Assembly: GCA_004321885.1 (NCBI GenBank) | Contig: SCQK01000013.1 | Span: 1-64,000 of the forward strand | Direction of reading: 5' to 3' | Source: Patescibacteria group bacterium | Lineage (GTDB): Bacteria; Patescibacteriota; Patescibacteriia; Magasanikbacterales; GWA2-37-8 | DNA length: 64,000 nt | Part shown: piece after piece, positions 18,213 through 19,289 of the stretch | How the letters are laid out: every line of letters starts with the position of its first letter | Position numbering within the stretch: position 1 is the stretch's first letter | Made by a program: the position numbers and the translations under genes | The notes under the pieces: generated by a model | What the model was told of the DNA's origin: nothing | What the model saw: the letters and a program-made list of their open reading frames with translations, nothing else | Databases searched by the model: none

Positions 18213-19289
18213 ATGAAGGAGACACGAGTTGGATCCGGAGAAGATGTTGAAAGAGATAAAAGAGCCGAAGTTCTGACACGCTTTTTGAAATTCGCCAGAG
18301 AGATCGCCCCTTTCAAAGGAAAAAAACTAGAAGAAATTTTTGCGAACGAAGAACAAAAACGCGAATTCATCAAAAATTTAGATATAGACGGATTTATTGA
18401 TTTATTGAGTGGCGTAAATGGAATTTTACGCGACAGGAAGAAAACAGACTGGAGCATGGATGGAAAAACTGTAAAGCTTTCTAGCGTGCTTCTTGGTGAC
18501 GCGTATGTTCCTCCAGAACAGGAAGATAAGCCGGAATTATTGGAAAAATCCTTGGAGGGAGCGCAAGAGATGGTAGAATTGAAAAGGGATATTAAAGATA
18601 TTGCCCTCCTACTTGCTAGCTGTATTAATGCGATTCATCCTTTTGCCGATGGTAATGGTAGAACTAGTCGGGTGATTTATCTTTTAACCGCTAATGATTT
18701 AAATGAAGACACAATTGACAAACTGAAAGAAGCGTTATCGCAATATGGCAGGGAAAAAATTGACCCGAATCCTGGTTTTGTTCAATATGAATTGGATAAA
18801 TTGGTTGATGGTGAGGTAGGTTTAGATGACCTCACAAGGAACCCAGAAGGAGTTAGTTATATGTTCGCCTCTGACGAATATATAAAGGGAGGAAGTCGAA
18901 GTAGAATTAAAAATAATCAAATTTCTGAAGAAGACAAAATATTATTTCATAATTTTTTCTATGATCATGGCAAAAGGAGATACTTTTTTCTGGCTTTGCT
19001 CAAGTTTGTATTAGACAAAGGATTGGACGTGAGAAAATATATTAAAAAATTTGGAAAGCGTACAAACATTAACGCCGATGAAGTGATTGAAGATATAGAT
19101 CAAAATGGAATGGATCAAATTAAACAAAATTACCGAAATTTAAAAAAAAGGTACGTTGAAATTTTAATAGATTGTATGGTTCACCCTGAAAAAGAACAGT
19201 ATAAAGTTGAACATGGCGGTAAGGTAATGTCGTTAAAAGATTATTTTCAATTAAAAATTCAAGAGGAAATAGAAAATTGTAAAGAATAA
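18213..19289 (+). CDS. Fic/Doc-family protein (AMPylase-type motif), AT-rich, inserted within the atp operon
   Basis: Canonical Fic motif '[13 protein letters not shown]'. 3-nt and 7-nt spacers to atpG and atpD. Visibly lower GC than the flanking atp genes. Confidence 0.75.

Follow-up and report, generated by a model that had tools for sequence, protein, structure and literature searches.

A Fic-domain gene of likely foreign origin between atpG and atpD in the ATP synthase operon of a Patescibacteria group bacterium

A gene encoding a Fic-domain protein lies between atpG and atpD, inside the ATP synthase (atp) operon of an uncultured Patescibacteria group bacterium. The explanation that we favour, and which we consider reasonably probable, is that horizontal transfer brought in an accessory gene with no promoter of its own, which encodes a catalytically competent Fic enzyme and has been placed opportunistically in the atp operon. 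For its clade such a location is ordinary, although in general it would be unusual. What is new, as judged from sequence comparison, is an unannotated Fic subfamily outside classes I–III with a C-terminal domain that has no solved relative, the Fic fold itself being known. Genomes of Patescibacteria are tiny, and classical defence or toxin systems are believed to be few in them.

The Fic gene in the ATP synthase operon

In the ORF list of the window (the whole stretch of 64,000 nt that was analysed), the Fic-domain ORF extends from 18213 to 19289 on the + strand, starts with ATG and encodes 358 aa. It is inserted between atpG (17250..18209) and atpD (19297..20664), which are on the same strand. 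The original prediction had reported a 358-aa Fic ORF here with spacers of 3 and 7 nt, and its coordinates proved exact. The operon is made up of the following features.

13124..13152 (+), candidate operon promoter, sigma-70-like TTGACC-17-TAGAAT, 10/12, the best match of the scan; a consensus match only, just 5′ of the atp genes
13164..13394 (+), atpI-like gene for a small membrane protein (ATPase_gene1), opening the atp cluster (Pfam PF09527, 1.9e-15)
15212..15598 (+), atpH (delta/OSCP), short form of 128 aa (Pfam OSCP, 1.1e-22, profile positions 59-172 only)
15597..15634 (+), dispersed repeat copy in the atpH–atpA spacer (repeat family D4, 3 copies in the window)
15684..17204 (+), atpA (F1 alpha) (Pfam ATP-synt_ab, 9.9e-86; N- and C-terminal domains also matched)
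17209..17243 (+), hairpin-plus-GGAGG-like dispersed repeat filling the atpA–atpG spacer (repeat families D1/D2, 5-7 copies)
17250..18209 (+), atpG (F1 gamma) (Pfam ATP-synt, 1.1e-89, profile 1-285/285)
18210..18212 (+), spacer between atpG stop and Fic start, TTT, 3 nt (from the sequence)
18213..19289 (+), Fic-domain gene, 358 aa, compositionally foreign cargo (from ORF, Pfam, composition and predicted structure)
19290..19296 (+), spacer between Fic stop and atpD start, AAATTAT, 7 nt (from the sequence)
19297..20664 (+), atpD (F1 beta) (Pfam ATP-synt_ab, 6e-73)
20667..21101 (+), atpC (F1 epsilon) (Pfam ATP-synt_DE_N, 3.3e-25; ATP-synt_DE, 7e-11)
21108..21134 (no strand assigned), candidate operon terminator, an 11-bp-stem GC-rich hairpin just past atpC (palindromic stem; the scan scored the minus strand)

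Both neighbours of the insert are intact: atpG reaches its normal C-terminus, which aligns with that of relatives, and atpD begins at its normal N-terminus and shares 87% identity over residues 1-455 with atpD of the two closest relatives (loci L013 and L014). The starts of the Fic gene and of atpD lie in an AT-rich context lacking a Shine-Dalgarno sequence, as is usual in this genome and also for atpD in relatives. Several copies of the D1/D2 repeats are located directly 5′ of start codons, and the repeats within the atp operon are palindromic.

A signal scan of the + strand found no sigma-70-like promoter or intrinsic-terminator-like site in or around the Fic gene. Since spacers of 3 and 7 nt are too short to hold a promoter or terminator of its own, co-transcription with the atp genes can reasonably be inferred from the sequence. 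The original prediction had stated that the gene must be co-transcribed; its argument from the lack of room in the spacers stands, and its 'must' is reduced to that inference. The 3′ end of the Fic gene, which is AT-rich, may contain an internal promoter for atpD. As had also been claimed, no antitoxin-sized ORF adjoins the Fic gene on the + strand in the window's ORF list. The sole small ORF nearby, of 83 aa, is antisense (18206..18457, − strand) inside the Fic 5′ end and has the look of a shadow ORF. A search for target-site duplications or terminal inverted repeats flanking the insert gave short matches at chance level only, and no mobility gene flanks it.

The base composition of the gene is that of a stranger in its surroundings. 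GC is 0.350 and GC3 0.295, versus means of 0.483 (sd 0.044) and 0.553 for the 57 ORFs of the window (z = -3.0), which makes it the second most deviant of these ORFs, and GC3 is 0.63-0.64 in atpG and atpD. Horizontal acquisition is thus likely, and the composition profile bears out the earlier statement that the gene is AT-richer than its flanks. Homologues elsewhere likewise have a GC content 5-7 points below that of their own flanks.

Related atp operons and their occupied junctions

A scan based on atpG, with one genome per species, yielded 80 related atp loci. When these were searched with the Fic protein by tblastn, a homologue was found in 0/80, so the Fic gene is not an ancestral member of the operon; the synteny comparison that the original prediction had proposed therefore came out in favour of an insertion. 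In the closest relatives atpG is directly followed by atpD, with a spacer of 36 nt in L013 (atpG 70% identical) and of 53 nt in L014 (64%). Because the closest available relative has an atpG identity of only 70%, the insertion could be fixed across the whole genus.

The same junction is frequently occupied by other genes. We defined as near the 20 loci with the greatest similarity to the window (atpG at least 41% and atpD at least 70% identical), the rest being distant; the near group was set by atpG/atpD similarity and not by taxonomy, some record titles ('uncultured Gammaproteobacteria') being unreliable. A junction was counted as occupied when it held at least 250 nt of extra DNA.

atpG–atpD: occupied in 8/20 near and 1/59 distant loci (Fisher p = 3.7e-5)
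atpA–atpG: occupied in 4/20 near and 0/59 distant loci
atpD–atpC: occupied in 2/20 near and 0/54 distant loci

The premise of the original prediction that the operon is normally uninterrupted thus fails within this clade. The types of cargo found there are related neither to Fic nor to each other.

atpG–atpD: 23S_rRNA_IVP four-helix-bundle proteins (L017, L018, L034)
atpG–atpD: a GIY-YIG protein (L015)
atpG–atpD: Bro-N, a Gp49/HigB-like toxin and an HTH protein (L023)
atpG–atpD: small membrane ORFs (L022, L025)
atpG–atpD: a 1.1-kb segment with no clear gene (L019)
atpD–atpC: PDDEXK_3 (L015, L019)
atpA–atpG: a SemiSWEET-like protein and unknown small proteins

All atpG–atpD inserts in relatives are AT-richer than their flanks, marginally so in L025. 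The three IVP proteins are 66-71% identical to one another, a level between that of the corresponding atpG (46-63%) and atpD (83-87%); they may represent one old insertion, or site-specific homing. Since they may share one insertion, the independent events at this junction may be fewer than eight, and cargo types were counted instead. GIY-YIG, 23S_rRNA_IVP and LAGLIDADG ORFs have been described from CPR rRNA genes, where insertion sequences carry them (PMC11270868). To judge from the loci compared, the atp junctions of this clade tolerate and repeatedly collect foreign small genes.

Homologues of the Fic gene are found in quite other places. About 14 of their genomic contexts could be read; all differ and none is an atp operon. 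In one of them the gene precedes DUF4446-infB, and in another it is flanked by a 23S_rRNA_IVP gene and ileS (4-nt spacer). Elsewhere it neighbours an rve integrase, lies between folD and a methyltransferase-like gene (read from its translation, with no profile match), follows prfB-ftsE-ftsX (twice), comes directly 3′ of secE-nusG-rplK, or adjoins RhuM-like genes. A specific coupling of Fic to atp, which the original prediction had singled out as unusual, accordingly finds no support in these contexts, and the junction itself takes other cargo.

The Fic protein and its family

A word-indexed search retrieved 34 relatives of the Fic protein, the nearest being 47% identical, and an exhaustive profile search at E <= 1e-30 extended the family to at least 248 representatives, each standing for a 50%-identity cluster. 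The family carries no annotation, the window's own protein being recorded at NCBI as a 'hypothetical protein' of a Patescibacteria group MAG, and the few members with a taxon label are Patescibacteria. Most are 330-370 aa long. A subset of 600-711 aa carries a common unannotated extension of about 290 aa, which we considered as a Rosetta-stone clue to a partner and rejected: it matches nothing in Pfam, and neither the surroundings of the short forms nor the window contain a separate homologue of it. A scan of viral contigs gave generic Fic cores only and no full-length family member.

The following parts of the protein can be distinguished.

18294..18314 (+), aa 28-34, AREIAPF with Ala32, possible vestige of a class II inhibitory motif (MAFFT, hhalign; low confidence)
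18501..18683 (+), aa 97-157, Fic core with PP-helix, helix alpha4 and active-site loop (Pfam PF02661; PDB profile match FICD)
18636..18671 (+), aa 142-153, active-site motif starting at His142, fits HxFx(D/E)GNGRxxR
18795..19286 (+), aa 195-358, family-specific C-terminal domain of 164 aa, helices plus two beta-hairpins (predicted structure)

Over aa 97-157, and only there, the protein scores 35.9 bits with the Pfam Fic profile PF02661 (gathering score 24), so that the canonical Fic motif claimed for this protein has passed a profile search. The best sequence-profile match in the PDB is FICD (E = 3e-7, positions 99-165). Searches of PHROGs and NCBIfam with the Fic protein returned weak, sub-threshold matches at the level of the core only, to Doc-like models. 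The all-helical Fic core fold is seen in the predicted structure, which is a confident model from end to end. In the family alignment H142, N148, G149 and R150 are invariant (165/165), D146 is present in 160/165, and R153 in 159/165 with Lys in a further five. The HxFx(D/E)GNGRxxR motif predicts adenylylation (PMC3667792), and the protein is most likely a Fic-fold enzyme that is catalytically competent as an AMPylase (NMP-transferase).

Outside the motif, the family has near-invariant positions of its own: R14, N69, G70, R73, D83, G84, V87, P101, D105, K106, K311 and P325. The conserved D83-G84..V87 lies at the site expected for the beta-hairpin flap, by which Fic proteins register their target, just upstream of the stretch aligned with FICD; the model has no strands there and a pLDDT of about 60. 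The C-terminal domain (aa 195-358) found no structural match in the PDB, SoFic-type chains included.

Inhibitory motif and control of activity

About 90% of proteins with the HxFx(D/E)GNGRxxR motif have an (S/T)xxxE(G/N) inhibitory helix, which acts in trans for class I and in cis for classes II and III, and a Glu-to-Gly change in this helix relieves inhibition and harms growth (PMC3667792). The original prediction had proposed a check for such a helix. A motif search of the protein and of the alignments showed that the canonical motif is not a feature of the family. One sequence, TRNPEG at aa 208, was considered as a class III-like inhibitory motif and rejected: it falls in a predicted loop, and no other member matches there in a 23-sequence alignment. 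By our estimate about 0.4 matches of the TRNPEG type are expected by chance, and one was seen.

We also aligned the family with 41 class II Fic sequences taken from the fetched loci. MAFFT and global hhalign gave an identical alignment, with low posterior in the inhibitory stretch, in which the class II 'S-N-x-I-E-G-N' is matched to the family's 'N-I-E-x-F' (aa 28-34 in the window protein). After N-I-E-x-F, at the point where class II proteins extend their inhibitory helix, 17 residues are deleted in the family, and a common 'GK..(R/E)E' anchor follows. Position 32 was considered as a true inhibitory glutamate and downgraded, given the low posterior and the facts that it is acidic in only 78/108 of the members that keep the segment (Ala in 3) and that the segment is absent in 57/165. 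With low confidence, aa 28-34 might be a vestige and not a functional brake.

A conserved small neighbour or partner gene was likewise lacking across the roughly 14 family contexts. From its sequences, the family is placed outside the regulatory classes I–III. Since it lacks the (S/T)xxxE(G/N) brake, its activity must be controlled otherwise; candidates would be the family's N-terminal helix with the invariant Arg14, the C-terminal domain, oligomerisation, or low translation resulting from atypical codons. A Fic enzyme that has no brake and is constitutively transcribed should be toxic, which would speak for some such other control, for an activity that is low or missing, or for the protein being a deAMPylase. 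The family thus raises the question of how such an enzyme is kept harmless, and what it modifies, in an epibiotic bacterium.

Possible origin and function of the inserted gene

Opportunistic placement is probable because the atpG–atpD junction repeatedly takes unrelated hitch-hiker genes in relatives; the Fic gene would reside there since the junction accepts foreign small genes, and not through any action on ATP synthase. It would be transcribed within an atp polycistron that begins near 13.1 kb and ends at the 21.1-kb hairpin, and translated from its own ATG in an AT-rich context with no Shine-Dalgarno sequence. By the rules of the Fic family, His142 would deprotonate the hydroxyl of a target Ser, Thr or Tyr, Mg-ATP would be bound by Asp146, Asn148, Arg150 and Arg153, and AMP would be transferred to a cellular or phage target. 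The most plausible role for the gene would be as a toxin-like or abortive-infection-type module, or as a stress regulator comparable to SoFic.

The position of the gene could also be taken to mean that it encodes a dedicated regulator of ATP synthase or a sensor of ATP level, whose location between the gamma and beta genes would secure its expression in stoichiometric amounts with F1. The tight spacers of 3 and 7 nt, the co-directional arrangement in the operon and the failure of the + strand scan to detect an independent promoter are in keeping with this idea, as is the fact that ATP is the Fic co-substrate (PMC3667792). Nevertheless we regard it as very unlikely, given that 0/80 related atp operons have a homologue, that no examined family member lies in an atp operon, that the same junction holds unrelated selfish-type genes in relatives, and that a GC3 of 0.295 against 0.63-0.64 in atpG and atpD speaks against long co-adaptation. 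A full-text literature search, moreover, found no paper joining Fic and 'ATP synthase operon'. Single-gene abortive infection of the SoFic type, in which the protein would be inactive until infection and would then AMPylate an essential host factor such as EF-Tu, is a plausible sub-case, though an unlikely one on balance. SoFic is the best PADLOC model match, and like SoFic the window protein is a stand-alone Fic protein of similar length with a sporadic distribution. However, the PADLOC match covers 65/361 model positions (146-210), which is the generic Fic core, the C-terminal domain is a different one with no detectable similarity to solved structures, SoFic-type chains included, no AS1-like small antitoxin gene lies downstream, and the gene is outside any defence island. 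It would also be unusual for an abortive-infection toxin to be expressed constitutively as part of a housekeeping operon.

The gene might, on the other hand, be a decaying or neutral hitch-hiker, that is, a selfish ORF inserted recently and tolerated, of no use to the cell and maybe catalytically off or poorly translated. Atypical codon usage, the lack of a partner or regulatory gene and the gathering of selfish elements at the junction would fit, and the Ala at the putative inhibitory position, unlike in most relatives, could reflect relaxed constraint. Decay is nonetheless decidedly unlikely in view of the full-length ORF, in which R14, N69, R73, D105, K106, H142 to R153 and P325 are all intact, and of the structure model, confident throughout. 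It is extremely unlikely that a low-GC fragment of another organism has been joined into the MAG's atp operon by an assembly or binning artefact. GC changes abruptly at either boundary, the contig, which bears the locus tag EPN28_03005, is metagenome-assembled, and an exact-sequence look-up did not find the Fic protein on other indexed contigs; but the foreign segment is exactly one complete ORF with spacers of 3 and 7 nt, atpG and atpD are perfectly intact, there are no boundary repeats to mislead an assembler, and comparably precise single-gene inserts occur at the same junction in independent assemblies. An extension of opportunistic placement, quite unlikely in our estimation, would be that junctions of operons that are essential and strongly transcribed (atp, secE-nusG-rplK, ftsEX, ileS) serve as safe-harbour landing pads in Patescibacteria for promoter-less selfish or accessory genes, the gene at hand encoding an AMPylase without a brake (Glu-to-Ala at the inhibitory position of the vestige) whose dose would be tied to atp transcription. 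If this were true, the Fic protein would be a toxin or regulator coupled to growth rate or energy, or an addiction element that could not be silenced without loss of ATP synthase.

Comparison with known Fic systems and insertions

Neither the Fic family nor the junction findings change the current understanding of Fic enzymes and ATP synthase, and both are cheaply testable. Compared with class II Fic AMPylases (FICD/HYPE, SoFic, BT_2513 and Dde_2494), to which the window protein is only 14-18% identical, the family differs in lacking (S/T)xxxE(G/N) and in the 17-residue deletion at the inhibitory helix, and the window protein has the 164-aa C-terminal domain instead of a detectable TPR or wHTH-type accessory domain. 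With the class I modules FicT/FicA, VbhT/VbhA and Doc/Phd it shares the Fic fold, a toxin-like, horizontally mobile character and, as noted, weak Doc-like profile matches. Unlike these toxin–antitoxin modules it is not bicistronic, having no antitoxin ORF on either side and no conserved small neighbour in the readable contexts, and class I toxins are half its size. It also differs from AtpI-like accessory subunits in not being conserved in related atp operons (0/80).

The nearest parallel to its location may be found in the same phylum, in the selfish ORFs that reside in CPR rRNA genes (PMC11270868), which are likewise inserted inside a highly expressed essential transcription unit. There are differences, in that the host is here a protein-coding operon, the insert lies between genes, the cargo is Fic and not a nuclease or IVP, and neither an intron-like RNA nor a homing endonuclease accompanies it. 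Taken with the CPR rRNA cargo, foreign genes at atp junctions point to a wider lodging of such genes in the essential transcription units of streamlined genomes. Two of the rRNA cargo families, GIY-YIG and 23S_rRNA_IVP, also occupy the atpG–atpD junction of relatives.

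Dispersed repeats and palindromic elements

Several repeated or palindromic sequences are scattered over the window, both between and inside genes, and the copies found by repeat searches within the window, together with one perfect hairpin, are listed below.

Repeat copies and hairpin in the window
1338-1372, copy of the ~35-nt element
8666-8698, copy of the ~35-nt element
10116-10151, copy of the ~35-nt element, shortly 5′ of the metG start codon (10161)
17209-17244, copy of the ~35-nt element, shortly 5′ of the atpG start codon (17250)
21166-21201, copy of the ~35-nt element
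59176-59210, copy of the ~35-nt element
9719-9774, copy of the 56-nt palindromic element
59654-59709, copy of the 56-nt palindromic element
15597-15634, copy of the 38-nt repeat, in the atpH–atpA spacer
21677-21714, copy of the 38-nt repeat, inside the HhH-GPD glycosylase ORF (21318-22037)
21890-21927, copy of the 38-nt repeat, inside the same glycosylase ORF
11461-11476, perfect hairpin TCCCGCGAAAGCGGGA, inside the methionyl-tRNA synthetase ORF metG (10161-11702)

The ~35-nt element consists of a CCCCTTTATAAGGGG hairpin followed by 'AGGA..GGAGGGGTAA', and several of its copies, such as those at metG and atpG, are followed by a start codon only a few bases downstream. Most genes of this genome have no Shine-Dalgarno-like sequence, and the element has the look of a mobile palindrome bringing one along. 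The two copies of the 56-nt palindromic element, 'AGGGG..GGCCACCACACCAAAGAATTTGGTGTGGTGGC..GGGG', are 89% identical.

Repeats are also found within coding sequences. Two of the three copies of the 38-nt repeat 'TGTCATTGCGAGGAGCGAAGCGACGAAGCAATCC' are translated in frame in the glycosylase ORF, as ...LRGAKRRSNP... and ...LRGAQRRSNP..., and the coding sequence therefore tolerates the repeat element. The metG hairpin, translated as ...SFPRKRESM..., appears to be a further palindromic element, inserted in frame within an essential gene.

The atp operon in the window and in relatives

Besides atpG–atpD, the atpD–atpC and atpA–atpG junctions also carry additional genes in relatives. At atpD–atpC these encode PD-(D/E)XK (PDDEXK_3) proteins in two of the fetched loci:
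L015 7171-7599, PDDEXK_3 protein gene
L019 7726-8154, PDDEXK_3 protein gene

Of the extra genes at atpA–atpG (L028 3662-3955, L013 3706-3993, L014 3541-3987 and L017 3657-3998), one encodes a SemiSWEET-like PQ-loop protein and three encode small proteins that lack annotation. In L019, atpG and atpD are separated by ~1.1 kb (4945-6101) with only short and unconvincing ORFs; this spacer could represent either an insert that has decayed or a non-coding element. The MAGs of L013, L014, L017, L018, L024, L027 and L031 are titled 'uncultured Gammaproteobacteria bacterium'; their atp genes clearly have their nearest counterparts in Patescibacteria, and the records are probably mislabelled.

In the window itself, atpH (15212-15598) starts 8 nt 3′ of atpF and encodes an ATP synthase delta (OSCP) subunit of only 128 aa. 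Its Pfam match is restricted to profile positions 59-172 of 172, and the subunit seems to be devoid of the usual N-terminal part.

Long Fic-family members and a second low-GC island

A subset of the Fic family (P0035, P0041, P0043, P0045, P0065 and P0071, as well as the members at L173, L012 and L255) shares a conserved C-terminal extension of ~290 aa, for which there was no Pfam match. The 711-aa member at L255 (5001-7136) lies directly 3′ of secE-nusG-rplK, at the point where rplA is usually the next gene, and is followed by dcd-thyX-glyA. Another member, P0166 (600 aa), contains two Fic stretches.

A second low-GC island occurs in the window at 23851-24796, comprising one ORF of 152 aa and another of 157 aa (GC 0.298 and 0.403; GC3 0.18 and 0.36, respectively). 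Neither had a Pfam match, and the 152-aa ORF is the window's most deviant gene by composition.
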